Below are positions 18,047 to 38,925 of a stretch of DNA of 64,000 nucleotides, one piece after another. The notes beneath the pieces are model-generated. The model did no database searches and was not told the origin of the DNA. It saw only the letters and a program-made list of their open reading frames with translations. The translations under genes were made by a program, and so were the position numbers. The DNA is taken from NCBI GenBank assembly GCA_964393405.1, contig CAYMTR010000003.1, forward strand, positions 58,915 through 122,914. The letters run 5' to 3'. The number at the start of each line of letters is the position of its first letter. Position 1 is the stretch's first letter. The stretch comes from an uncultured Prolixibacteraceae bacterium. Its GTDB lineage: Bacteria > Bacteroidota > Bacteroidia > Bacteroidales > Prolixibacteraceae.

Positions 18047-18997
18047 ATGAAACATTTTACTTCAGTAAACGATTTGCCTTCCATTAAAGAAGCTTTGGAT
18101 GAAGCATTTATTGTTAAAAAAAATCCTTATGATTTTCAACATCTTGGGAAAAACAAAACCATGATTTTAATGTTCTTTAACTCCAGTTTGAGAACCAGAT
18201 TAAGCACTCAAAAGGCTGCTGAAAATATGGGAATGAAAGTGATGGTTCTTGATGTAAACCTTGGCGCATGGAAGCTTGAAACTGAAAGGGGTGTGATTAT
18301 GGATGGAGATAAAGCAGAACATCTTCTTGAGGCAATACCTGTTATTGGTTCTTATGCAGACATAATTGGAGTTCGATCTTTCGCACAGTTCAACAGTAGG
18401 GACGAGGACTATTCTGAAAATGTTCTTAGCCAGTTTGTTAAATATTCAGGAGTCCCAGTTGTAAGCATGGAAGCGGCAACAAGACATCCTTTGCAAAGTT
18501 TTGCTGATCTTATTACCATGGTTGAGTATAAAAAGGTTGAAAAGCCAAAGGTCGTTTTGACATGGGCACCTCATCCAAGGGCTTTGCCTCAGGCTGTTCC
18601 TAACTCATTTGTTGAATGGATGAAAGCTGCCGATTATGATTTGGTAGTAACACATCCTGAAGGTTATGAACTTGCCTCTGAGTTTATGGGCGATTTAAAG
18701 CCTGAATATGATCAAAATAAAGCTTTTAAAGGTGCAGATTTCATTTATGCAAAGAATTGGGCATCTTATTCCGATTACGGGAAAATTCTATCAAAAGATA
18801 TGAATTGGACAGTATCGGATAGGCAAATGGCTTTGACCAATGATGCTAAATTTATGCATTGCCTCCCTGTAAGGAGAAATATGATTGTTACCGATGATGT
18901 AATTGAAAGTAAAAATTCTATTGTGATTCCTGAGGCAGCAAACAGGGTTGTATCCGCACAAGCAGTTCTAAAAATGATACTTGAAGATTTGAAATAA
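18047..18997 (+). CDS. argF': N-acyl-L-ornithine carbamoyltransferase, Bacteroides ArgF' type (predicted N-succinylornithine-specific)
   Basis: 316 aa. As far as I recall the B. fragilis ArgF' sequence, this ORF is near-collinear with it (FFNSSLRTRLSTQKAA, GAWKLETERGVIMDGDK, EAATRHPLQSFADL, HCLPVRRN). Confidence 0.88.
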   Translation: MKHFTSVNDLPSIKEALDEAFIVKKNPYDFQHLGKNKTMILMFFNSSLRTRLSTQKAAENMGMKVMVLDVNLGAWKLETERGVIMDGDKAEHLLEAIPVIGSYADIIGVRSFAQFNSRDEDYSENVLSQFVKYSGVPVVSMEAATRHPLQSFADLITMVEYKKVEKPKVVLTWAPHPRALPQAVPNSFVEWMKAADYDLVVTHPEGYELASEFMGDLKPEYDQNKAFKGADFIYAKNWASYSDYGKILSKDMNWTVSDRQMALTNDAKFMHCLPVRRNMIVTDDVIESKNSIVIPEAANRVVSAQAVLKMILEDLK

Positions 18998-19046: not shown

Positions 19047-19592
19047 TTATGCATCAATAACCTGCAGCATTTCGTCTCTTTCTTTTAGAAATTCTGAAAG
19101 ATGCTCTATCGGTGATCTTGTGATTGCAACCTTTCCTGACCGTACAAACTGTAAGACTTTAAACTCGTTTAATTCTGTGAAGAACTCCTGGGTTTCTTCT
19201 GAATGTCCGGTTTTCTCAATTACAGTATAGTCTTTGGTAATCTCCATTATCCTTGCATTGTGCTTTCTAACTAGCTTTTCAATCTTGTTGCTTACTGTCA
19301 ATGCCTCCGTAGATACTTTGTAAAGCGCTACTTCTTGATAGATAATCTCGTCGTTAGTATGGTAATATGCCTTAAGTACTTCAACTTGTTTTTCAATCTG
19401 ACCTACAATCTTTTTAACCTGCTCCTCGGTCGATTCTACAACAATTGTAAACTTACTGACACCCTTTATTGATGACTCAGAAACAGTCAAACTTTCAATG
19501 TTCACTTTCCTTCTTGTGAAAATTATTGTGATTCTATTGAGTAGTCCAATGTGGTTTTCTGAATATGCTGTTATGTTATATTCTTTTTTCAT
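19047..19592 (-). CDS. ilvN: Acetolactate synthase small (regulatory) subunit
   Basis: 181 aa. N-terminal ACT domain (ITAYSENHIGLLNRITIIFTRRKVNIESLTVSES). Directly downstream of ilvB. Confidence 0.92.
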   Translation of the reverse strand: MKKEYNITAYSENHIGLLNRITIIFTRRKVNIESLTVSESSIKGVSKFTIVVESTEEQVKKIVGQIEKQVEVLKAYYHTNDEIIYQEVALYKVSTEALTVSNKIEKLVRKHNARIMEITKDYTVIEKTGHSEETQEFFTELNEFKVLQFVRSGKVAITRSPIEHLSEFLKERDEMLQVIDA

Positions 19593-19621: not shown

Positions 19622-21325
19622 TTAAGAATTTGGTTTTTCCAATATTATTTCAGAAACACTTGCGCCTGTTGGAACCATTGGAAATACGTTATCTTCTTTA
19701 TCAACAACAACTTCTAAAAGGTATGGACCCTTATGTGAAATCATTTCTTCAATTGCACCTTCAAGTTCTGAGTTGAGTTCAACTTTCTTTGCACTGATAC
19801 CAAAAGCACCTGCAAGTTTTATGAAGTCAGGATTTTTTAGTTCGGTAAACGAATACCTTTTTTCAAAGAAAAGCTCCTGCCATTGTCTTACCATCCCCAG
19901 GAAATGATTATTCAGGATGATTATTTTTACAGGTATATCCTCCTGAGCAATTGTTCCCATCTCCTGCATTGTCATTTGAAATCCTCCATCACCTATGAAT
20001 GCAATGACTGTACGATCCGGCCGACCAATCTGAGCACCAACAGCGGCAGGTAAGCCAAATCCCATTGTGCCAAGTCCTCCGGAAGTAATCATACTTCTTG
20101 TTTTCTTAAATTTGAAATAGCGGGATGCTATCATTTGCTGTTGTCCAACATCGGTTACACATATAGCGTCAGCATCTACTTTTTCTGAAGCTATTCTAAC
20201 AGCTTCTCCCATTGATATTTTACCGTTGTTTCTGTAAATATCTTTCTTTATTACTTTCTCAAATTCAATTTCGTAAGCTTCTTTAAACTCCTGAATCCAT
20301 TCTTTGTGTTCATTCTTGTTTATCAGAGGAAGCAACATCGTCAAAACACTCTTTGCGTCACCTAAAACAGGATATTCGGTTTTAACAATTTTATTGATTT
20401 CTGATGGGTCAACTTCAATGTGCATGATTTTTGCCTGTTTTGCATATGCGCTAAGCTTACCTGTTACCCTGTCGTCAAATCTCATTCCAATTCCAATGAG
20501 TAAATCGCATTCATTTGTCTTGATGTTTGGAGCATAATTGCCATGCATTCCAAGCATTCCTACATTCAGCGGGTGATCTGAAGGCACTGCCGAATTTCCA
20601 AGCATAGTCCACGCTGCTGGTATATCTGCTTTTTCTATCAATGAAATTAGCTCTTTTTCTGCTCCTGATATTATTACTCCGTGTCCAACAAGAATGAAAG
20701 GCTTCTTTGCTTTGTTTATTGCATTTGCAGCTGCTATTACTTGTTTCTCATCTATTGGATAATAGGGAATATAACTTCTGATTTTTGTACACTTCTCATA
20801 AGAAAAATCGAGTTCTGCAAATTGAACGTCTTTAGCTACGTCAATCAATACTGGTCCCGGTCTTCCTGAGCTTGCAATATAGAAAGCTTTTGCCATTACT
20901 TCTGGAATCTCAGAAGCATTGGTAAGCTGATAATTCCATTTTGTAACAGGCATTGACATGCCAACTATATCTGATTCCTGAAAAGCATCTGTGCCTAATA
21001 ATGGAGATGCCACTTGACCTGTGATGCAAACTACAGGAGTTGAATCAATCATAGCATCAGCAATTCCTGTAACCAGATTTGTCGCTCCGGGACCTGATGT
21101 CGCAAAGCATACTCCTGTTCTTCCTGTAACTCTTGCATAACTTTGGGCAGCGTGAATAGCACCCTGTTCATGGCGGGTAAGAATATGACGCAAATTATCG
21201 CGATGATCATATAATGCATCATATATTGGCATAATAGCCCCACCGGGATAACCGAATATTGTTTCAACTCCTTCTTCTAAGAGCGAACGTATTATTGCTT
21301 CTGAACCGTTTATTCTTTCTGACAT
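19622..21325 (-). CDS. ilvB: Acetolactate synthase large subunit (biosynthetic, ThDP-dependent)
   Basis: 567 aa. ThDP motif GDGGFQMTMQEMGT and an N-terminus typical of AHAS. Confidence 0.95.
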   Translation of the reverse strand: MSERINGSEAIIRSLLEEGVETIFGYPGGAIMPIYDALYDHRDNLRHILTRHEQGAIHAAQSYARVTGRTGVCFATSGPGATNLVTGIADAMIDSTPVVCITGQVASPLLGTDAFQESDIVGMSMPVTKWNYQLTNASEIPEVMAKAFYIASSGRPGPVLIDVAKDVQFAELDFSYEKCTKIRSYIPYYPIDEKQVIAAANAINKAKKPFILVGHGVIISGAEKELISLIEKADIPAAWTMLGNSAVPSDHPLNVGMLGMHGNYAPNIKTNECDLLIGIGMRFDDRVTGKLSAYAKQAKIMHIEVDPSEINKIVKTEYPVLGDAKSVLTMLLPLINKNEHKEWIQEFKEAYEIEFEKVIKKDIYRNNGKISMGEAVRIASEKVDADAICVTDVGQQQMIASRYFKFKKTRSMITSGGLGTMGFGLPAAVGAQIGRPDRTVIAFIGDGGFQMTMQEMGTIAQEDIPVKIIILNNHFLGMVRQWQELFFEKRYSFTELKNPDFIKLAGAFGISAKKVELNSELEGAIEEMISHKGPYLLEVVVDKEDNVFPMVPTGASVSEIILEKPNS

Positions 21326-21341
21326 ATTATAAGTATTATTA

Positions 21342-23162
21342 TTAAATTATACGAACAGCACCTTTATCAGATGAACTAACCAAACTTGCGTATGCTTTAA
21401 GTGCTTTGCTTATCTCTCTTTTTCTATTTGGCATGAATGCTTCATTGCCCTTTGCAAGTTCATCTGCTCTTCTCTGTTCTATTTCTTTTTCACTAATTAT
21501 TAAATTGATACTTCTGTTTGGGATATCAATTTCTATCTTGTCTCCATTTCTGACTAGTCCAATCTCACCTCCAGCTGCTGCTTCAGGCGAAACATGGCCT
21601 ATAGATAATCCTGAAGTACCTCCTGAAAATCGTCCGTCTGTAACAAGGGCACAAGCTTTATCAAGTTTTACTGTTTTTATATATGAAGTTGGATAAAGCA
21701 TTTCCTGCATGCCTGGACCTCCCTTTGGACCTTCATATAAAATGAAAACAACATCGCCAGCCTGAACTTCTTCACCAAGAATTCCATTGCATGCATCTTC
21801 CTGTGAATGAAATACTTTTGCTGTTCCCGAGAATTTGTATACAGAGGGATCTACTCCGGCAGTTTTGACGATACAGCCATCTTTGGCAATATTGCCAAAG
21901 AGAACTGCGAGACCTCCTTCTTTATTATATGCGTTATCAATATTCCGGATGCAACCTTTTTCCCTATCTAGGTCTGCTTCCTTAAAATTATTATCCTGAC
22001 TGGCCATTACAAGGTTAAACTTATTACCCGGTGCTGCAAGATATATTTTACGTGCTTTATCAGTTGAACTATTTCTAATTAGATCAAATTTGTCTAAAAC
22101 TTCTCCAATTGTATTTCTGTCTACCCTTAAGGCGCTTCTGTCTAAAAGTCCCGCTCTGTCAAGTTCACCTAAAATTCCCATAATACCTCCGGCTCTGTTA
22201 ACATCTTCCATATGGTATTTTGAACTTGGTGCAACTTTGCATAAATTAGGAACTTTGCGTGAAAGCTGATCTATATCTGCCATTGTAAAATCAACTCCCG
22301 CTTCGTGTGCAATTGCAAGTAAGTGAAGAATTGTATTAGTGCTACCTCCCATACCGATATCTAATGTCATTGCATTCATAAATGCTTTCTTGGAAGCTAT
22401 GGAACGAGGTAAAACTTTATCATTTCCCTTATAATAATACTCTTCAGCATTTTCAACAATCAGGTCGGCTGCTTCCATGAAAAGATCCATCCTGAGTTTG
22501 TGAGTAGCTACAACTGTGCCATTCCCGGGTAGTGCTAATCCAATGGCTTCAGCCAAACTGTTCATGGAGTTTGCAGTAAAAAGTCCTGAGCATGAACCAC
22601 AAGTAGGGCAAGCACCTCTTTCAACTTTTTCTACCAATTCATCAGGTATATTTTTATCGGCACCCATTACCATTGCATCAACGAGGTCATATTTATTTCC
22701 ATCAATTGTGCCTGCTTCCATAGGGCCTCCTGAAACAAAAATTGCAGGAATGTTTAGTCTCATTGCTGCCATCATCATTCCCGGGGTTATCTTGTCACAA
22801 TTAGAAATGCATATCATTGCATCTATTGTATGTGCATTGCACATATACTCAACACTATCAGCAATAAGATCCCTTGATGGTAAGGAATATAACATCCCGT
22901 TATGTCCCATTGCTATCCCATCATCAATAGCTATTGTGTTGAACTCAGCTGCAAAACATCCTTTTTCAGCTATCCTTTTCTTAATTATCTGTCCTATTTC
23001 ATGAAGATGAACATGACCGGGAACCATTTGGGTGAATGAATTCACGACAGCTATTACTGGTCTGTTCATTTGTTCTTCTGTCATCCCGTTTGCTCTCCAT
23101 AAAGCCCGGGCTCCGGCCATTTTTCGGCCTTGGGTACTTGTTGCACTTCTAAGTATTGTCAT
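21342..23162 (-). CDS. ilvD: Dihydroxy-acid dehydratase
   Basis: Motifs [12 protein letters not shown] and [19 protein letters not shown] at 23162 ([12 protein letters not shown]) is preferred over the upstream track start at 23189. Confidence 0.95.
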
Positions 23163-23176
23163 ATCGATTTTTTTAT

Positions 23177-23207
23177 AAAAAAAAACCATCCTCTTTTTGA
23201 GAATGGT
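23177..23207 (-). terminator. ilv attenuator terminator (alternative antiterminator uses 23243..23252)
   Basis: On the minus strand ACCATTCTC-AAAAA-GAGGATGGT (9 bp, one G-U pair) is followed by T9, ending 14 nt before the ilvD ATG. The same ACCATTCTCA segment pairs perfectly (10 bp) with TGAGAATGGT, which includes the leader stop codon. Confidence 0.8.
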
Positions 23208-23249
23208 CTGTTAATATTTTTTTGATTTATTTACATCACTTAACCATTC

Positions 23250-23324
23250 TCACTTCTTAGAAATGACGACCACTACTACTAGTAGTACTACTTCAAGAAT
23301 GGATATGTTCAGTAAATTCTTCAC
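23250..23324 (-). CDS. ilv operon leader peptide MKNLLNISILEVVLLVVVVVISKK (GTG start)
   Basis: 24 codons, 15 of them Val/Leu/Ile, including an uninterrupted run VVLLVVVVVI. An in-frame TAA lies 3 codons upstream of the GTG. The TGA stop is embedded in the antiterminator arm. Confidence 0.7.
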   Translation of the reverse strand: MKNLLNISILEVVLLVVVVVISKK

Positions 23325-23583
23325 TTTATTTTCTTATGAAAGCAAATGTATAAATAAAAATTAAAAATCAAAATCTATCTCTAACTTTGTTAGTTAATTA
23401 ACTTTCATTTATTAATTATTTGTATATATAATTATTGAAATTCATATTTTCAACAATCTAATTCTATTGTTCGACAATTTATTGTTGATCTATTATATGC
23501 CTTTTTGATTTTTATTTTGTAAATTCAACATCATTGAATCTGATTCTAATAATCAAATTTCTCTTACTTTAAAAATTGATAAC

Positions 23584-23820
23584 ATGGAAGAACCTAAAAT
23601 TGCAGCAAAAGCTCCAAAAGCTGTTGAACTTGAACCGGGTAAATACTTTTGGTGTGCATGTGGAGAAAGCAAAAATCAGCCATTCTGTGACGGATCACAT
23701 GCTGGTACAGGTTTTAAACCTATGCCTTTTGAAATTACCGAGAAAAAGACTTATTACCTTTGTCAATGTAAACATTCTGAAAATAAACCATTCTGCGACG
23801 GGACTCACAGAAAACTTTAA
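23584..23820 (+). CDS. CDGSH-type iron-sulfur domain protein (two CDGSH motifs)
   Basis: 78 aa with the motifs CACGESKNQPFCDGSH and CQCKHSENKPFCDGTH. Confidence 0.9.
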   Translation: MEEPKIAAKAPKAVELEPGKYFWCACGESKNQPFCDGSHAGTGFKPMPFEITEKKTYYLCQCKHSENKPFCDGTHRKL

Positions 23821-24704
23821 TCTTTAGTTACTCCTGAGGATCTATTTCCTGCAATTTCATCGAATGCTTTTATGTACGTTGGATATTTGAATTCATATCC
23901 CATTTTTATAAGGTGTTCAGGATAAACATTTACCCCATTTAGTATTATGCATGCGGCATCACCAATTAGTAGTTTTAAAAAGAATGAGGGTATTCTTATA
24001 ATCAAAGAATTTCTGAGTCTTTTGGACATAATTCTTGACATTTCATAATTAGTTATTGAGTCAGGAGCAACTAAGTTGAATAATCCCGAAGTAGATTTAT
24101 TCTGAATGAAAAATTTAAAAATCTCAGAAACATCGTCAATGTGAATAATTGAATTAGGTTGTTTACCATTACCTATTCTTACTACAATCCCAAGTTTTAA
24201 AAAAGGCAATATGGTCTTTATCATTCCTCCATCACGACTCAAAACAACACCCAATCGGGCAATTACTAATCTTACAGCTGGATTTACTAGTTCATCTACT
24301 TCCGCCTCCCATTTCGAAACTACCTCTGCAAGAAAACCACTTCCCTTGGTTGTGTTATATTCACTGTAGATTTTAAATTTATCATTTGGATAAATTCCGG
24401 TTGCAGAAGCTGAGATTAATAATTTTGGAGAGATGTCTTCAGGAAGACTATTTAATATTTGTACTATTTTTCGGGTTGTAATAATCCTACTGTCAAGAAT
24501 TAGCTTTTTATTCGCTGGCGTCCACCGTTTTAATATGGGACTTCCGGATAGATTTATAATCACATCTGATTTGGTAATAATTTCTGTCCAATTCTCAAGG
24601 CTTTCATCTCTTTTCAAAATCAATATTTCAGACGCGAAATCTTTAAAGTTCTTAATTACATTTCGACCAATAAAACCGCTGGCGCCGGTAAAAGCAATTA
24701 TCAT
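23817..24704 (-). CDS. NAD-dependent epimerase/dehydratase, TIGR01777/YfcH-like
   Basis: 295 aa. N-terminal Rossmann motif IAFTGASGFIGRN and a DUF1731-like C-terminus. Its stop overlaps the convergent CDGSH gene stop. Confidence 0.75.
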   Translation of the reverse strand: MIIAFTGASGFIGRNVIKNFKDFASEILILKRDESLENWTEIITKSDVIINLSGSPILKRWTPANKKLILDSRIITTRKIVQILNSLPEDISPKLLISASATGIYPNDKFKIYSEYNTTKGSGFLAEVVSKWEAEVDELVNPAVRLVIARLGVVLSRDGGMIKTILPFLKLGIVVRIGNGKQPNSIIHIDDVSEIFKFFIQNKSTSGLFNLVAPDSITNYEMSRIMSKRLRNSLIIRIPSFFLKLLIGDAACIILNGVNVYPEHLIKMGYEFKYPTYIKAFDEIAGNRSSGVTKD

Positions 24705-27219: not shown

Positions 27220-28860
27220 TCACCAAAATACATCATATAATATCTTTCCTCTTGCATCGTCAGGAGGAAGGATATCTATGAACTTACATATTGTTGGAAC
27301 AATATCTATCAGTTCAACCTGTTGAATTATGTTTCCGTGTTTAACCATTGACCCATAAAAAATAACAGGAGCCATGTTTTGAGTAGAGTAATCTGTTTCA
27401 TTAAACTTATGTACCGGCTGCCAACCCTCTTCAAGCAGAAGTAATACATCGCCTGACCTCTGAACACAATAGCTGTTTTCAAGAATCTTAAACCTTGGAT
27501 TATTGAGATTACCCTTTTCCAGCACCCCAGCCGGAACTGCAGCTTTAACACCTTCAAACTGATTTAAAAATAGTGCAACTTTATCTTGAATCTCTTCTAA
27601 CGATTTTTCTTTATCTTCAATAAGCTTGTGGTTCAGAAAGACTTGTTCTTCGTTGTACATTTGAATCCACTCGGCTACACCATAGGTGGCATTTAGATAA
27701 GCCCTCAAAAGTGCCATTGCTATCTGAGGTGAAAACTCTCCTGCTTTGAAATTAAATTTCTCCTTTAATACATCTGAAGGATAATTACTTGTCGAAGCAG
27801 CTGTTAGGAATACCAGATAATTGTCCTTGCCGAATTTTTTATCTAGAAATGTTAAAAGTGAAGCTATTTCCTGGTCAAGATATAAATAACTATCATGTAT
27901 TTCAACTGAAGAGGGACTGAACCATTTGTTGGCAAAATCCATTGAGGAAAAAGTAATATTCAGTAGGTCGGGAAATTCATCTTCTCCCAGAGTGAAATTG
28001 TCAATCATCTGAACGGCAAAATCCTTTATAAGTCGGTTTCCATAAGGTGTTGCAGGCAGGATCTCATAACACGATTCAAGATTTGAACATAAGTTTGTGA
28101 GATTATAAGGAAAGGTTCTGAATTTTTTGAAGAAACCTTTCTCAAGTGAAAAATCATCAGGAAATCCAGACTTGTAGCTGCCTGAAGGAAGTAATAAATC
28201 CCATTCCTTCTGAAGATACATGTCGGGCATTTTCTTTTCATTAAATAGCCTCACCCATTCAGGGAAAATATTCATGTAATAAGATGAAGTAATAATATTG
28301 CCGTTAGAATTGTCGTACCAAAATGCTCCATCTGCTGCATGTCCGGCACTTAATACTGCAGCATTCGGATTTAAAGCTATTGAATAAACTTTTGATTTGA
28401 AGTTGGTATTTTCTTTCAATGCATCACCAAGAGTGAATGTTTTCAACATATTAGCAGAGACGTTTCCTTTTTTTGAGTCGCTTCCCATTGTAAGATAGAA
28501 ATCATCATTAGTGCAGTGTATCGTCTGTTGCTTCAGATGTTTATACCACTGATCTCCAATTATTCCATGTTCAGATGGATAGGTTCCTGTATATATTGTT
28601 GAAATAACAGTTGACGTTTTGATGTTGTGGATATCAATTATTGCAGTTTTAGCAATTGCACCATTTTCTGCTAGTCGTCTAAAACCGCCCTTTTGATAGG
28701 TGTCCCAAAACTTTGTAATATACTCAGATCTGAAATGATCAATAGTAATTCCTATAACTAATTTAGGCTTGTTTTCGAATAAGGCATATTCCTGCTGGGC
28801 TGATAAACCAAAAGAAATAAGAAGTAATGCAAAGAATGAAAATATATATTTTTTTATCAT
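27220..28860 (-). CDS. Secreted alkaline-phosphatase-superfamily protein (type I phosphodiesterase/nucleotide pyrophosphatase-like)
   Basis: Signal peptide after ATG 28860 (MIKKYIFSFFALLLISFGLSAQQ). Motif TGTYPSEHGIIGDQWY. The track start at 28881 is TTG. Confidence 0.7.
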   Translation of the reverse strand: MIKKYIFSFFALLLISFGLSAQQEYALFENKPKLVIGITIDHFRSEYITKFWDTYQKGGFRRLAENGAIAKTAIIDIHNIKTSTVISTIYTGTYPSEHGIIGDQWYKHLKQQTIHCTNDDFYLTMGSDSKKGNVSANMLKTFTLGDALKENTNFKSKVYSIALNPNAAVLSAGHAADGAFWYDNSNGNIITSSYYMNIFPEWVRLFNEKKMPDMYLQKEWDLLLPSGSYKSGFPDDFSLEKGFFKKFRTFPYNLTNLCSNLESCYEILPATPYGNRLIKDFAVQMIDNFTLGEDEFPDLLNITFSSMDFANKWFSPSSVEIHDSYLYLDQEIASLLTFLDKKFGKDNYLVFLTAASTSNYPSDVLKEKFNFKAGEFSPQIAMALLRAYLNATYGVAEWIQMYNEEQVFLNHKLIEDKEKSLEEIQDKVALFLNQFEGVKAAVPAGVLEKGNLNNPRFKILENSYCVQRSGDVLLLLEEGWQPVHKFNETDYSTQNMAPVIFYGSMVKHGNIIQQVELIDIVPTICKFIDILPPDDARGKILYDVFW

Positions 28861-28994
28861 ATGTCGGTTAATTCTTCTCAAATGTATAAAATTGAATTGT
28901 TAAACAATAATTTGTAATAATCAGTAATCGAAAATTAATATCTAAACTTTAAAAAACGATTAAAAGTGTACTAAAGTTGAAAAATTATTAATGC

Positions 28995-29143
28995 GGCAAC
29001 AGGCACAAAACCTACCACTGTTTACTGAGGTATTTCAATAGGGATTGATACGTACCACATTCGTACCACATTCGTCCTTTCTCCCTTAATAAAGGGAGAA
29101 AGGACGGTTCAGGTAGGTATGAGGTACAGTTTTGCTGTTGTCC
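28995..29143. repeat. GC-rich nested inverted-repeat element (candidate structured RNA or miniature repeat element)
   Basis: Perfect 15-bp hairpin CGTCCTTTCTCCCTT-aata-AAGGGAGAAAGGACG (29073-29106). Preceded by the tandem 11-mer CGTACCACATT x2 (29051-29072). Enclosed by imperfect outer arms 28995-29016 and 29112-29143. Confidence 0.55.
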
Positions 29144-29441: not shown

Positions 29442-29792
29442 ATGTTGAACCAGTATGAAAGTGTATTCATCGTAACACCTGTATTGTCAGATGCACAATT
29501 TAGGGAAGTGGTGAATAAATTCAACGGATTAGTAACTGCCAATGGTGGTGAAATTCTAAATGATGAAGATTGGGGGCTAAAAAAATTGGCTTACCCAATT
29601 CAGAAAAAAACTACAGGTTTCTATCATCTTGTAGAATTCAAAGCAGAACCATCTTTTATTGAAAAATTAGAAATTGATTTTCGTCGTGATGAACGCATTA
29701 TCCGTTTTCTAACATTCAGATTAGATAAGCATGCTGTTGAATACAGCGAAAAACGTAGAAATAAAGTTAAAGCTAAAGTAGAGGAGAAATAA
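29442..29792 (+). CDS. rpsF: 30S ribosomal protein S6
   Basis: 116 aa, N-terminus [13 protein letters not shown], followed by rpsR and rplI. Confidence 0.97.
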
Positions 29793-35108: not shown

Positions 35109-35591
35109 TTTGGGAATTATGTTATTTTATTTTATAAAACACATAAGCATAGAACTAGTATATATATTTAGATTTCTTTTAGTGTGTAAAAAATTTTTAA
35201 AAAAGAGTTCAAAAGAGTTTTATTTAGACACGATTTTAAAGAGTAGAATTCGATTTTAGATTAGTTTTAATTGTAAAAATATTGTAAAAAAATTATTGCA
35301 TTAATGTTACTAGTTGTAAAAATAACAATCGATTACATTGATTTAGATAGAATTTTTTCAGAATACTTTTTATTGTTGATATTTAGAAGTAAGGGCTAAC
35401 TTTTTTTTCTAAATTATCATAATTTATTTTAGAAATTACGATGATTATTGAACATATTTATTTAGTATATTTAAGACCTTGCATATAAGAAACTTTGAAT
35501 ATAGTTGTTCATTGTAAAAGACTGTAATATAGTTAATTGAGATTTGTTTTTAATTTTAAGAATTTATTTTTTTGAAAAACAAGTATTTATG

Positions 35592-35638
35592 AATTATCTG
35601 AAAAAACAATTAAAAAAAGGTTTTTTTTTCAGATAATT
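35592..35638. repeat. Perfect 15-bp inverted repeat about 80 bp upstream of the dnaA start
   Basis: AATTATCTGAAAAAA (35592-35606) and TTTTTTCAGATAATT (35624-35638), separated by 17 nt. Confidence 0.6.
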
Positions 35639-35716
35639 TTTCACATTTTTGTATTCGTTATAATTAAACGACGCAACCTAAATTTCTAACTTAAATTTTT
35701 TAATAAACCGCCAATA

Positions 35717-37144
35717 ATGCCGAAGAATCACTATCAGATTTGGAATGATTGTCTCTTAATAATTAAAGATAATGTACAACCGACAAGTTTTAGAACTTGG
35801 TTTGAACCAATAAAGCCTCTGAAAATTGCGAATGACATTCTAACAATTCAGGTTCCTAGTCCATTTTTTTATGAGTATTTAGAAGAACAATATATAGATA
35901 TTCTTAGAAAGACTCTGAGAAAGGTTATTGGCAATAATGCAAAGCTTGAGTACAATGTAGTTATGAGCACTACTCAGCAAAAGAGTGGCTCCCTAACTGT
36001 TAATTATCCTGCAAATAATAATTCAAAATTAAATAACAGACCTATTTCATTTCCGTTTGGCGAAAATTCCGGAGTAATTAAGAACCCTTTTATAATCCCG
36101 GGTATTAAAAAACTACATATTGACCCGCAACTTAAAAAAGATAATACTTTCGATAATTTCATAGAAGGAGAATGTAACAGATTAGCTCGTAGTGCAGGTT
36201 ATGCAGTTGCTCAAAATCCGGGAGGGACATCTTTTAATCCTCTGATGATATATGGCGACAGTGGTTTGGGAAAAACTCATTTGGCCCATGCTATTGGAAT
36301 TGAAGTCAAAGAAAGATTTCCTGAGAAAGTAATACTTTACGTAACAGCTAATAAATTTGCATCTCAATATTCAGAAGCTTCAATTTCTAACACAAGAAAT
36401 GATTTTATGCATTTCTATCAAATGATTGATGTGTTAATTATTGATGATGTTCAAGAATTCTCGGGAAAAGAAAAATCCCAGGAAACATTTTTCCATATTT
36501 TCAACCATCTGCACCAATCAGGGAAGCAGTTAATTCTTACTTCAGACAAAGCTCCTACAGAAATAAGCGGAATTCAAGAAAGGCTTCTTTCCAGATTCAA
36601 ATGGGGACTAACTACTGATCTTCAGGTGCCTGATTATGAAACCCGCTTATCTATTTTAAAGAAAAAGACATATAAGGATGGTTTAACGATGCCTGAACAG
36701 GTTCTTGAATATATTGCACAGAATATATACACAAATGTCAGGGAACTTGAAGGAGCTTTAATATCATTACTTGCACAGTCGACCTTGAATAAAAAAGCAA
36801 TAACCAAAGATTTGGCTGTTGAAATGATCAATAAGATTGTGAAGCAAAACAGGCATGAGATTACGATTGATTATATTCAAAAAATAGTTTGTGATTACTT
36901 CAGCTTACCAGTCGATTCTTTACAGTCGAATACAAGAAAAAGGGAAGTTGTTCAGGCCAGGCAGATTGCTATGTTCTTTTCAAAAAGTCTTACAAAATCA
37001 TCACTGGCTTCAATTGGATCACAAATTGGACAAAAAGACCATGCAACAGTTTTACATGCCTGTAAGACAGTAAATAATTTGATAGATACTGACAGACAAT
37101 TTAAAATTGATGTAGAAGAAATAGAAAAAAGGCTGAAGGTGTAA
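35717..37144 (+). CDS. dnaA: Chromosomal replication initiator protein DnaA
   Basis: 475 aa. Walker A GDSGLGKTHL, IIDDVQ, and a C-terminal DNA-binding domain (KDHATVLHA). Confidence 0.97.
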   Translation: MPKNHYQIWNDCLLIIKDNVQPTSFRTWFEPIKPLKIANDILTIQVPSPFFYEYLEEQYIDILRKTLRKVIGNNAKLEYNVVMSTTQQKSGSLTVNYPANNNSKLNNRPISFPFGENSGVIKNPFIIPGIKKLHIDPQLKKDNTFDNFIEGECNRLARSAGYAVAQNPGGTSFNPLMIYGDSGLGKTHLAHAIGIEVKERFPEKVILYVTANKFASQYSEASISNTRNDFMHFYQMIDVLIIDDVQEFSGKEKSQETFFHIFNHLHQSGKQLILTSDKAPTEISGIQERLLSRFKWGLTTDLQVPDYETRLSILKKKTYKDGLTMPEQVLEYIAQNIYTNVRELEGALISLLAQSTLNKKAITKDLAVEMINKIVKQNRHEITIDYIQKIVCDYFSLPVDSLQSNTRKREVVQARQIAMFFSKSLTKSSLASIGSQIGQKDHATVLHACKTVNNLIDTDRQFKIDVEEIEKRLKV

Positions 37145-37925: not shown

Positions 37926-37976
37926 ATGAAATTGCATAAAAGACCAGTAGACTCTCTATTGGTCTTTTTTATATGA
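37926..37976 (+). promoter_or_regulatory. pyrBI leader: intrinsic terminator hairpin (37941..37970) fully spanned by a 16-codon mini-ORF (MKLHKRPVDSLLVFFI)
   Basis: AGACCAGTAGA-ctc-TCTATTGGTCT (11 bp, one G-U pair) followed by T6, 44 nt upstream of the pyrB ATG. The ORF runs ATG 37926 to TGA 37974-37976. Confidence 0.5.
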
Positions 37977-38013: not shown

Positions 38014-38925
38014 ATGCAGAAACGAGATTTAATATCTATTACAGACTTTAACAAAGAGGATTACTTAAGGATTATGGAGCTTGCAACCGAGTTCGAAAAT
38101 AATCCTAATCAAGATTTGCTTAAAGGAAAGATTGTTGCGACATTGTTTTTTGAACCTTCAACCAGAACAAGGCTAAGTTTCGAAACAGCAATAAATAGAA
38201 TTGGGGGCAGGGTTATAGGTTTTTCCGATTCATCATCTTCAAGTGTGTCGAAAGGTGAAACTCTTCATGACACGATTAGGATGGTAAGTAATTATGCTGA
38301 TCTAATCGTTATGAGACATCCACTTGAAGGAAGTGCAAGGTATGCCAGTGAGATTTCATCAGTCCCCGTAATAAATGCCGGAGATGGAGCAAATCAGCAT
38401 CCTTCTCAGACATTGCTTGATATGTATTCAATCATGAAAACTCAGGGTCGTCTCGACAATATTAATATTTTCATGGTTGGTGACTTAAAATATGGAAGAA
38501 CAGTACATTCTTTATTAATGGCTTTATCTGAATTTGAAAGCCCGATTTTTAACTTCATTGCACCCCCGGAGTTGAAGATGCCGGTTGAATATAAACGCTT
38601 TCTTCATAGTAAGGGAATAAAATACTATGAACACTCTGAGTTTACTGATATAATTTCAGAAGCCGATATTATATATATGACAAGAGTTCAGAAGGAAAGG
38701 TTTACTGATCCTATTGAATACGAGAAAGTTAAGAATATTTATATTCTGAAGAATAAGATGCTTAAGAATACAAAACCTAATGTTAAGATTCTTCACCCAC
38801 TGCCAAGAGTAAATGAAATTCATACAGATGTAGATTCAAATCCAAAGGCTTATTATTTTACTCAAGCTTTAAATGGAGTATATACGAGGCAGGCTATAAT
38901 TTCACATATCATGGGATTAAAATAA
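38014..38925 (+). CDS. pyrB: Aspartate carbamoyltransferase catalytic subunit
   Basis: 303 aa. Motifs STRTRLSFE and HPLPR. Confidence 0.96.

Follow-up and report, generated by a model that had tools for sequence, protein, structure and literature searches.

A predicted leader-peptide attenuator upstream of ilvD-ilvB-ilvN in a Prolixibacteraceae genome, with counterparts in related Bacteroidota

The DNA analyzed here, a 64-kb stretch (64,000 nucleotides, hereafter the window) from an uncultured Prolixibacteraceae bacterium, carries on its minus strand the branched-chain amino-acid operon ilvD-ilvB-ilvN. Just upstream of ilvD lies a short open reading frame (ORF) crowded with Val, Leu and Ile codons, followed by an intrinsic terminator. 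We consider it very probable that this element is a transcription attenuator of the operon, in which a ribosome translating the leader peptide would decide which of two competing RNA helices forms. The observations that point to this reading are the ORF itself, four complementary segments, their geometry and energetics, and the conservation and covariation of the arrangement in relatives. On sequence grounds the element is real and conserved, but the mechanism predicted for it is one already known.

The leader ORF and two mutually exclusive helices

The leader ORF (23250-23324, minus strand, as are all leader and operon features below) opens with GTG at 23324-23322, continues for 23 more codons and closes with TGA at 23252-23250. 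Its 24 codons specify MKNLLNISILEVVLLVVVVVISKK, or (M)KNLLNISILEVVLLVVVVVISKK when written with the initiator. Fifteen of the 24 residues are branched-chain (three Ile, five Leu, seven Val), which places before ilvD-ilvB-ilvN a leader rich in codons for the end products of that operon. Ten of these codons, 12 to 21, form an uninterrupted putative regulatory run, VVLLVVVVVI (23262-23291), which is the sole Ile/Leu/Val run of at least eight residues across the six frames of the window. Comparison with the closest relative, locus L001, whose leader peptide is MKNLLNISILDIVLLAVVVVISKR, shows that the two leader ORFs differ at 2, 2 and 10 sites in codon positions 1, 2 and 3, respectively, the pattern expected of a translated sequence.

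Three downstream segments of the leader can pair in two alternative ways. Segment 2 (TGAGAATGGT, 23243-23252), the 5' arm of the antiterminator, contains the TGA stop codon of the leader and forms a 10-bp helix, every pair of it Watson-Crick, with segment 3 (ACCATTCTCA, 23198-23207). Segment 3 serves both as the 3' arm of the antiterminator and as the 5' arm of the terminator, so that the two helices exclude one another. In the terminator, ACCATTCTC pairs with segment 4 (GAGGATGGT, 23193-23185; found by direct reading and by terminator scan) across an AAAAA loop through nine pairs, one of them G-U. A run of nine Ts (23177-23185) follows, the first of which doubles as the last stem pair, leaving eight beyond the stem proper; the run ends 14 nt from the ilvD ATG at 23162. 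A consensus scan independently called the same terminator at 23209-23183, with 11 pairs. The leader ORF is therefore separated from ilvD, the first structural gene, by an intrinsic terminator.

An earlier note, drawn up from the sequence of this region, had proposed such an attenuator, and a reading of the minus strand of 23000-23600 matched every coordinate that it gave. The 24-codon ORF from GTG to TGA that it described was recovered both by direct reading and in the list of ORFs, the count of 15 branched-chain codons with ten consecutive was reproduced residue by residue, the perfect pairing of TGAGAATGGT with ACCATTCTCA around the stop codon held base by base, and matches to NCBIfam models agree with its ilvD-ilvB-ilvN assignment. 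Its terminator with nine Ts, 14 nt before the ATG, stands as well, save that the first T belongs to the stem and eight follow it. The three segments of its design are all present, and a fourth may have to be added, as described below.

The leader is considerably more structured than expected from its composition. Folding of the 166-nt leader gives -39.7 kcal/mol, against -23.3 +/- 3.4 kcal/mol for shuffled sequences (z = -4.8), and the antiterminator (A:B) duplex reaches -16.6 kcal/mol, against -8.0 kcal/mol for shuffles, only one of 200 of which equalled it. These values bear on the simplest alternative, that an AT-rich ORF and a terminator co-occur here by chance. The window has a G+C content of 34%, and in such a genome codons for Ile, Leu and Val are common; yet runs of at least ten are expected just 0.13 times per shuffled window, and this one falls within 160 nt upstream of ilvD. 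The presence of a single long run in the window, combined with the z-score of the fold, excludes chance, as do the conservation of the element and its match to a covariance model of relatives (below), and we assign coincidence a negligible probability.

A fourth segment may complete the design. Candidate segment 1 (CCATTCTT, 23295-23302), which spans codons 8-10, can pair with the stop-codon arm (23251-23244) through 8 bp at -10.1 kcal/mol, a value equalled by one of 200 codon shuffles (p about 0.005). This pairing appears together with the terminator in the minimum-energy fold of the complete, ribosome-free leader, and segment 1 is kept in L001 and L002, the two closest relatives of the window. 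With segment 1 included, the window attenuator may be of the classical four-segment design, in which segment 1 might provide termination by default when the leader is untranslated, as in trpL.

Sequences upstream of the ORF are consistent with a Bacteroidota-type promoter. A candidate -7 box, TACATTTG (23343-23350), fitting TAnnTTTG, ends 18 nt before the GTG, and a candidate -33 element, TTTG (23369-23372), lies 18 nt upstream of that box; both fit the consensus of the Bacteroidota primary sigma factor, TAnnTTTG with TTTG. Between the window leader and ilvD there is no TAnnTTTG box. Among the relatives described below, most first units have a TAnnTTTG box 14-28 nt upstream of the point where the leader begins. 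Of 54 units, 36 carry the motif within 60 nt, a distance over which the background is 0.09, and those that lack it are mostly second members of tandems.

Conservation in related ilvD loci and the alternatives it bears on

Comparison of the window with 80 loci that encode close IlvD relatives, each scanned over 450 nt upstream of ilvD, shows that most of them share one module, in which a promoter box of the Bacteroidota type precedes a mini-ORF rich in Ile, Leu and Val, the stop codon of the mini-ORF coincides with an antiterminator arm, and a terminator follows. All module-positive loci are labelled Bacteroidota and place the intrinsic terminator 20-60 nt before ilvD, and in most Bacteroidota-labelled loci the mini-ORF ends 85-110 nt before that gene. 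The labels of mini-ORF-positive loci include Prolixibacteraceae, Draconibacterium, Mariniphaga, Sunxiuqinia, Gaoshiqia, Lentimicrobiaceae, Labilibaculum, Ancylomarina and various Bacteroidales. In the 450 nt upstream of ilvD, loci bearing the labels Spirochaetes, Desulfobulbaceae, Chitinispirillales or Fibrobacteria have no such mini-ORF, and the first three of these groups also lack the leader-plus-terminator unit.

In total, 57 units in which an Ile/Leu/Val-rich ORF is paired with a terminator were identified upstream of ilvD in the Bacteroidota loci. For each, the terminator 5' arm and loop were searched for duplexes against a stretch that begins 25 nt ahead of the stop codon and extends as far as the terminator. 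The best duplexes have a median of -17.3 kcal/mol, compared with -9.1 kcal/mol for dinucleotide shuffles, and reach p <= 0.05 in 49 of the 57 units; binding weakens from -17.3 to -11.7 kcal/mol when a unit's own arm is exchanged for one from a unit whose terminator differs. The position of the antiterminator arm is fixed with respect to translation: in all 57 units it overlaps the stop-codon interval -15 to +12, and its 5' arm begins between -24 and +5 relative to the stop, never deeper in the searched spacer. The last Ile/Leu/Val codon usually lies three to five codons before the stop.

Both helices persist in relatives despite changes in sequence. In a MAFFT alignment of 36 sequences (A1), in which pairs were counted in fixed columns, 98.5% of the cells of the terminator helix are paired, compared with 46-63% when the partner columns are slid; two terminator pairs show compensatory changes (column 70/89 reads UA in 14 sequences, AU in 13, GC in five and CG in one), and RNAalifold predicts this helix unguided. 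The antiterminator helix is paired in 87% of its cells in A1, against 41-52% when slid, and in 83%, against 43-56%, in a 61-sequence model alignment. Replacement of whole segments with the layout kept is also seen, as in Lentimicrobiaceae-labelled loci (ACCGGAG / CTCCGGT / GGGGAGC) and in other classes (GGTGAGAATGG / CCGTTCTCACC). Alignment of the related ilvD upstream regions thus shows Ile/Leu/Val-rich ORFs and both alternative helices to be kept.

A covariance model, R1, built from 33 relatives with the window, L001 and L002 left out (alignment A2), defines a family that belongs to this analysis and is not a curated one. In the window, R1 has a sole significant full-length match, at 23177-23261 on the minus strand, which scores 52.6 bits (E about 2e-12), covers model positions 1-77 and forms all ten antiterminator pairs. 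The window and the 80 loci together make up 638 kb, in which R1 has 61 matches; 60 of them lie directly upstream of ilvD on the coding strand, and the remaining one is weak and on the minus strand. The conservation on which the earlier note had staked its proposal is therefore found, in 57 units and in the R1 score of the window.

Many loci carry the unit more than once. Two R1 matches each occur in nine loci (L007-L011, L024, L027, L029 and L030), and the scan for ORF and terminator gives two units in L063, L071 and L077. In these tandems the upstream unit is usually of the CCATTCTC type, as in the window, and the ilvD-proximal unit usually of the CCTTTCTC type; the two units encode different peptides. 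The window itself has one unit, of the CCATTCTC type; neither the ORF and terminator scan nor model R1 found a second unit upstream of it. These comparisons describe a coherent, ilvD-specific family of putative leaders across many Bacteroidia, in single and tandem copies, that is uncatalogued in Rfam, Pfam and NCBIfam.

We find it very improbable that the mini-ORF is instead a functional small hydrophobic membrane peptide with a terminator of its own, with ilvD driven from a separate promoter and the complementarity incidental. Its peptide is hydrophobic and about the length of a short transmembrane segment, and the third-position bias seen against L001 shows selection on coding only, not on regulation. 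However, the T-run leaves just 14 nt before the ilvD ATG, without a TAnnTTTG box, and the leader peptides of relatives (for example MKNISIISLVIVSVVVLLRAE, MRLFFTYIIVIVVVLLGKNEKG and MKSAYILLVLVVVVILIV) keep their Ile/Leu/Val composition and not their sequence. The exact window peptide is absent from a 15-billion-protein collection in which the IlvD and IlvB of the window are both present. Moreover, the unit is tied to ilvD in 60 of 61 model matches, the stop-codon arm changes along with the terminator arm from class to class, and tandem copies in relatives carry differing peptides.

A second alternative accepts the switch and has it set in trans, for instance by a protein that binds RNA, by uncharged tRNA or by a small molecule, with the ORF no sensor at all. 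The sequence of the hairpin lends this idea some appeal: the core CC[A/T]TTCT...GA[A/T]GG is unusually conserved across families, with 12 invariant columns in the 36 sequences of A1 (CC.TTCT being invariant in all of these relatives), and in 574 kb of loci this hairpin is confined to positions upstream of ilvD, with the exception of a single match in L016 that lies immediately downstream of the ilvD coding region. A hairpin so conserved could mark a sequence-specific binding site. A trans-acting factor would, however, require neither the ORF nor the fixed distance from stop codon to arm that are kept in 57 of 57 units, and no family of riboswitch, T-box or protein-binding leader matches the element, even at E <= 10. 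Three-way pairing together with overlap of coding sequence and stop codon can alone slow sequence drift, and we regard external control as quite unlikely.

A broader form of this idea would make the leader a phylum-wide, sequence-conserved Bacteroidota RNA family, with one to three tandem modules and absent from Rfam, whose arms are fixed by an additional sequence-specific partner; this seems to us improbable, if somewhat less so than control by a trans-acting factor alone. The arms CC[A/U]UUCUC and GAGAA[A/U]GG are near-invariant from Marinilabiliales and Bacteroidales to Flavobacteriales. The CCUUUCU 5' arm of CCTTTCTC-type units (for example L003, L012 and L020), the common variant, is identical to the presumed 3' tail of Bacteroidota 16S rRNA (...CCUCCUUUCU-3'), which would give a Shine-Dalgarno-like character to AGAAAGG, the sequence of both the arm at the stop codon and the 3' arm of the terminator. 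The variant in the window (23198-23207), CCAUUCU / AGAAUGG, has one mismatch to this presumed tail. If the match to the 16S tail is real, the switch could involve contact with a protein or with the ribosome as it terminates; the triple pairing constraint and the overlap with the stop codon may suffice to account for arm conservation.

The leader might also act mainly after transcription, with translation of the mini-ORF or formation of the hairpin beside the ilvD start affecting ilvD translation initiation or mRNA stability and not termination, an arrangement to which we give about as little weight as to control by a trans-acting factor. Initiation in Bacteroidota is thought to rely on an unstructured A/U-rich region rather than on a Shine-Dalgarno sequence, and with the hairpin and U-run ending 14 nt from the ilvD ATG, the conformer adopted could affect ribosome access. 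The hairpin nonetheless has the form of a canonical intrinsic terminator, with 9-11 bp, four G-C pairs and eight or nine Us, the U-run is kept in all relatives, where a purely translational switch would have no need of it, and the ilvD start codon lies outside the helix.

Predicted operation of the switch and its genomic setting

In the attenuation model, transcription would start at a point a few nucleotides beyond the TACATTTG box (23350-23343), and a ribosome would load at the GTG at 23324 and translate the 24 codons close behind RNA polymerase. With charged Val-, Leu- and Ile-tRNAs plentiful, the ribosome would reach the TGA and cover segment 2 (23252-23243), so that segments 3 and 4 would pair and the hairpin and U-run would stop transcription 14 nt before ilvD. 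Poor charging of any of the three tRNAs would stall the ribosome within codons 12-20 and expose segment 2 (stalls early in the run would cover segment 1 as well); segment 2 would then pair with segment 3 before segment 4 exists, no terminator would form, and polymerase would read through into ilvD. On a leader without a ribosome, segment 2 may be held by segment 1 (23302-23295), giving the terminator by default. Translation of the leader, the site at which transcription begins, ribosome stalling and responsiveness to amino-acid supply are all predictions of this model.

The geometry on which the model depends was probed by constraint folding, with the ribosome represented as a footprint of assumed size reaching from -18 to +12 nt around the first A-site base. 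The antiterminator is physically blocked when the A-site is at codon 21 or at the stop codon, and its arm is available when the A-site is at codons 4-20, an outcome that, with this footprint, bears out the masking of the arm by a ribosome at the stop codon postulated in the earlier note and agrees with the arm positions in the 57 units. With the A-site at codons 4-16, where the arm is free and segment 1 covered, the two conformers whose energies that note had proposed to compare differ by at most about 1.4 kcal/mol. In a nascent transcript that ends before segment 4, the antiterminator is present in the minimum-energy structure. The decision would therefore be a kinetic one, the antiterminator forming first if the emerging segment 3 meets a segment 2 that is still free.

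Several points weigh against this interpretation. For A-site positions at codons 18-20, where re-exposure of segment 1 behind the ribosome makes the terminator fold the more stable of the two by 2.5-4.5 kcal/mol, thermodynamics would favor termination; likewise, the equilibrium fold of the whole ribosome-free leader flips from one conformer to the other with the ends chosen, so that the attenuation model would rest on kinetics. The leader of the window starts with GTG, though L001 has ATG at that position. Internal mismatches affect two central pairs of the antiterminator in 22 and 28 of 60 sequences, and covariation in this helix is modest, with three pairs showing double changes and 94 of 500 shuffles scoring as high. 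Fixed-column counting understates the antiterminator in the MKNISIISLV... class, whose arm has one or two internal mismatches but a 5' extension into CTGAAT/ATTCAG. Pairing by segment 1 is not general: it is significant in 10 of the 57 units, and we therefore rejected it as a trait of the family. The relatives share ancestry, moreover, and the unit counts given above are counts of non-independent events.

The genes governed by the putative attenuator were assigned by NCBIfam matches. The first, ilvD (21342-23162), encodes dihydroxy-acid dehydratase (NF009103, 1022.6 bits) and is followed by ilvB (19622-21325), for acetolactate synthase's large subunit (TIGR00118, 742.6 bits), and by ilvN/ilvH (19047-19592), for its small subunit (TIGR00119, 106.9 bits). 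The next gene (18047-18997) lies on the plus strand and is convergent, so that ilvN is the last gene and the operon consists of ilvD-ilvB-ilvN. The closest relatives of this IlvD in the genome collection come from Prolixibacteraceae metagenome-assembled genomes and are at most 88% identical; this family is assigned to Marinilabiliales, Bacteroidia, Bacteroidota.

Alignment to 80 homologues puts the start of ilvD at ATG 23162. An in-frame ATG at 23187-23189 on the minus strand, within the terminator 3' arm, adds nine codons to the ilvD frame, and the ORF list gives the gene as 21342-23189. Gene callers may choose the ATG at 23189, wrongly lengthening ilvD and hiding the terminator in coding sequence.

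Upstream of the leader, a gap of 654 nt to the next minus-strand gene is partly occupied by an unlisted gene (23584-23820, plus strand) for a 78-residue CDGSH iron-sulfur protein with two CDGSH-type motifs, which matches Pfam zf-CDGSH at E = 2e-24. This gene diverges from the ilv leader, so that the candidate promoter of the leader falls in a region of divergent promoters. There is a 4-nt overlap between the CDGSH gene and the 3' end of a yfcH-like oxidoreductase gene (23817-24704, minus strand), the terminator-like hairpin of which (23812-23791) sits within the CDGSH gene.

Other parts of the window also contain structured or potentially regulatory sequence. In the interval 37926-37976 (plus strand), a hairpin (37938-37968) with a T-run is found 46 nt before pyrB (38014-38925; aspartate carbamoyltransferase), and a 16-codon ORF, MKLHKRPVDSLLVFFI, reads through it, an arrangement that recalls the E. 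coli pyrBI attenuator. Sufficient upstream sequence was available for 75 related metagenomic loci; in 21 of these a hairpin and T-run stand 25-91 nt before pyrB, many of them with a common CCAA[C/T]AG...CTGTTGG core, and this hairpin may be a pyr-specific element. A conserved pyrB leader ORF is unsupported, an ORF passing through the hairpin in six of the 21 loci. A perfect 32-nt palindromic hairpin without a T-run, GTCCTTTCTCCCTTTATTAAGGGAGAAAGGAC, occupies 29074-29105, between the divergent genes for a PafA-like alkaline phosphatase (27220-28881, minus strand) and rpsF (29442-29792, plus strand). The dnaA gene (35717-37144; TIGR00362, 504.5 bits) is preceded by a 608-nt intergenic region (35109-35716) that is a candidate replication origin. 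A search of the whole window with Rfam found no rRNA gene.

Comparison with known leaders and attenuators

What the window gains is a predicted cis-regulatory feature and an unannotated mini-ORF, and beyond it a single architecture, predicted to control ilvD, upstream of that gene in many families of Bacteroidia. Since Rfam, Pfam and NCBIfam hold no model for this leader, annotation pipelines miss it; the alignments and covariance model assembled here could seed a curated family. The whole-window Rfam search gave no match at gathering thresholds to any leader or attenuator family, the Leu, Thr, His and Trp leaders, Bacteroid-trp and T-box among them, and a permissive search around the element returned only chance-level matches with E >= 0.78. 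The conceptual gain would be small: ribosome-coupled attenuation, as predicted here in a phylum that initiates largely without Shine-Dalgarno sequences, was already suspected.

The closest mechanistic parallels are the E. coli leaders ilvL (of ilvXGMEDA) and ivbL (of ilvBN), which follow the same logic, a branched-chain leader ORF combined with mutually exclusive terminator and antiterminator helices. E. coli IlvL (NC_000913), MTALLRVISLVVISVVVIIIPPCGAALGRGKA, has 15 Ile/Leu/Val residues among 32 (five Ile, four Leu, six Val), the same number as the window peptide, and from this similar content sensing of all three amino acids would be expected in both leaders. The window element is shorter, with 24 codons and 87 nt from the stop codon to ilvD, and differs further in its Bacteroidota-type promoter, the lack of a Shine-Dalgarno sequence and an operon that begins with ilvD. 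At E <= 10 there is no family match for the window peptide, Pfam PF08046 and NCBIfam NF007744 included; with these two models E. coli IlvL, run as a positive control, scores 61.5 and 81.9 bits, respectively. The leader MKNISIISLVIVSVVVLLRAE of a relative reaches 10.2 and 14.8 bits, under cut-offs of 25 and 59, and conversely R1 gives the E. coli ilvL leader only 10.3 bits and does not recognize it. With no profile match and no detectable homology, membership of the window element in the enterobacterial IlvL family was rejected. The earlier note's description of classical ilvL/ivbL logic is apt as far as the logic goes; homology to those leaders was not found.

One resemblance at the peptide level stands apart. 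The leader MKNISIISLVIVSVVVLLRAE, found in L012 and similar loci, and E. coli IlvL (MTALLRVISLVVISVVVIII...; L081 523-621) share the register ISLV..SVVV, including both serines, and the NCBIfam IlvL model scores the former at E = 0.015 (14.8 bits), far under its cut-off. This likeness is probably convergence within a three-letter alphabet, which leaves the matching serine positions unexplained.

A layout as compact as that described in the earlier note, with two helices, is found in the ilvB-II uORF motif of Corynebacterium, where a conserved, Ile/Leu/Val-enriched uORF precedes a P1 antiterminator and a P2 intrinsic terminator, and stalling is predicted to favor the antiterminator (Narunsky et al., 2023, PMC10272879; PMC11109978). 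It differs from the window element in belonging to Actinomycetota, in its ilvBNC operon, in an unrelated sequence and in often having a Shine-Dalgarno sequence.

Within Bacteroidota, the sole amino-acid-operon leader of this kind in Rfam is Bacteroid-trp (RF01692), a cis-regulatory leader (Weinberg et al., 2010, PMC2864571) that in Flavobacterium psychrophilum has been located upstream of trpE and interpreted as a leader-peptide element for tryptophan (PMC9723704). It concerns another amino acid and another operon, and the window has no match to it at either gathering or permissive threshold. The supplements of a B. thetaiotaomicron transcriptome paper have no entry for ilvD or BT_2078. Vitreschak and colleagues are said to have reported attenuators in Bacteroidetes/Chlorobi in 2004.

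The nearest precedent comes from F. psychrophilum, in which the leader of the ilvE operon, a structured 5' transcribed region, has been read as a case of leader-peptide attenuation (Guerin et al., 2021, PMC9723704, SI D9, Table S7) and the trpE, pheA and hisG operons carry probable leader-peptide elements (PMC9723704). Attenuation by an ilv leader peptide had thus been predicted before in Bacteroidota, and the novelty that the earlier note claimed for the window was overstated. The two leaders belong to the same phylum and are the same kind of element, the F. psychrophilum peptide being Ile-rich (MRKFNIIPSIIIAIVIITTAKGML), whereas the F. psychrophilum operon is longer and has ilvE as its first gene. 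Inspection by eye of the published sequence (PMC9723704) suggests three tandem units, compared with one in the window; the repeated units of F. psychrophilum end in AAGCCTTTCTCATTCACTTGAGAAAGGCTTTTTTTT, nearly identical to the Prolixibacteraceae-type terminators. By the same inspection, F. psychrophilum uses the CCTTTCTC/GAGAAAGG variant of the arms, and the window the CCATTCTC/GAGGATGG variant.

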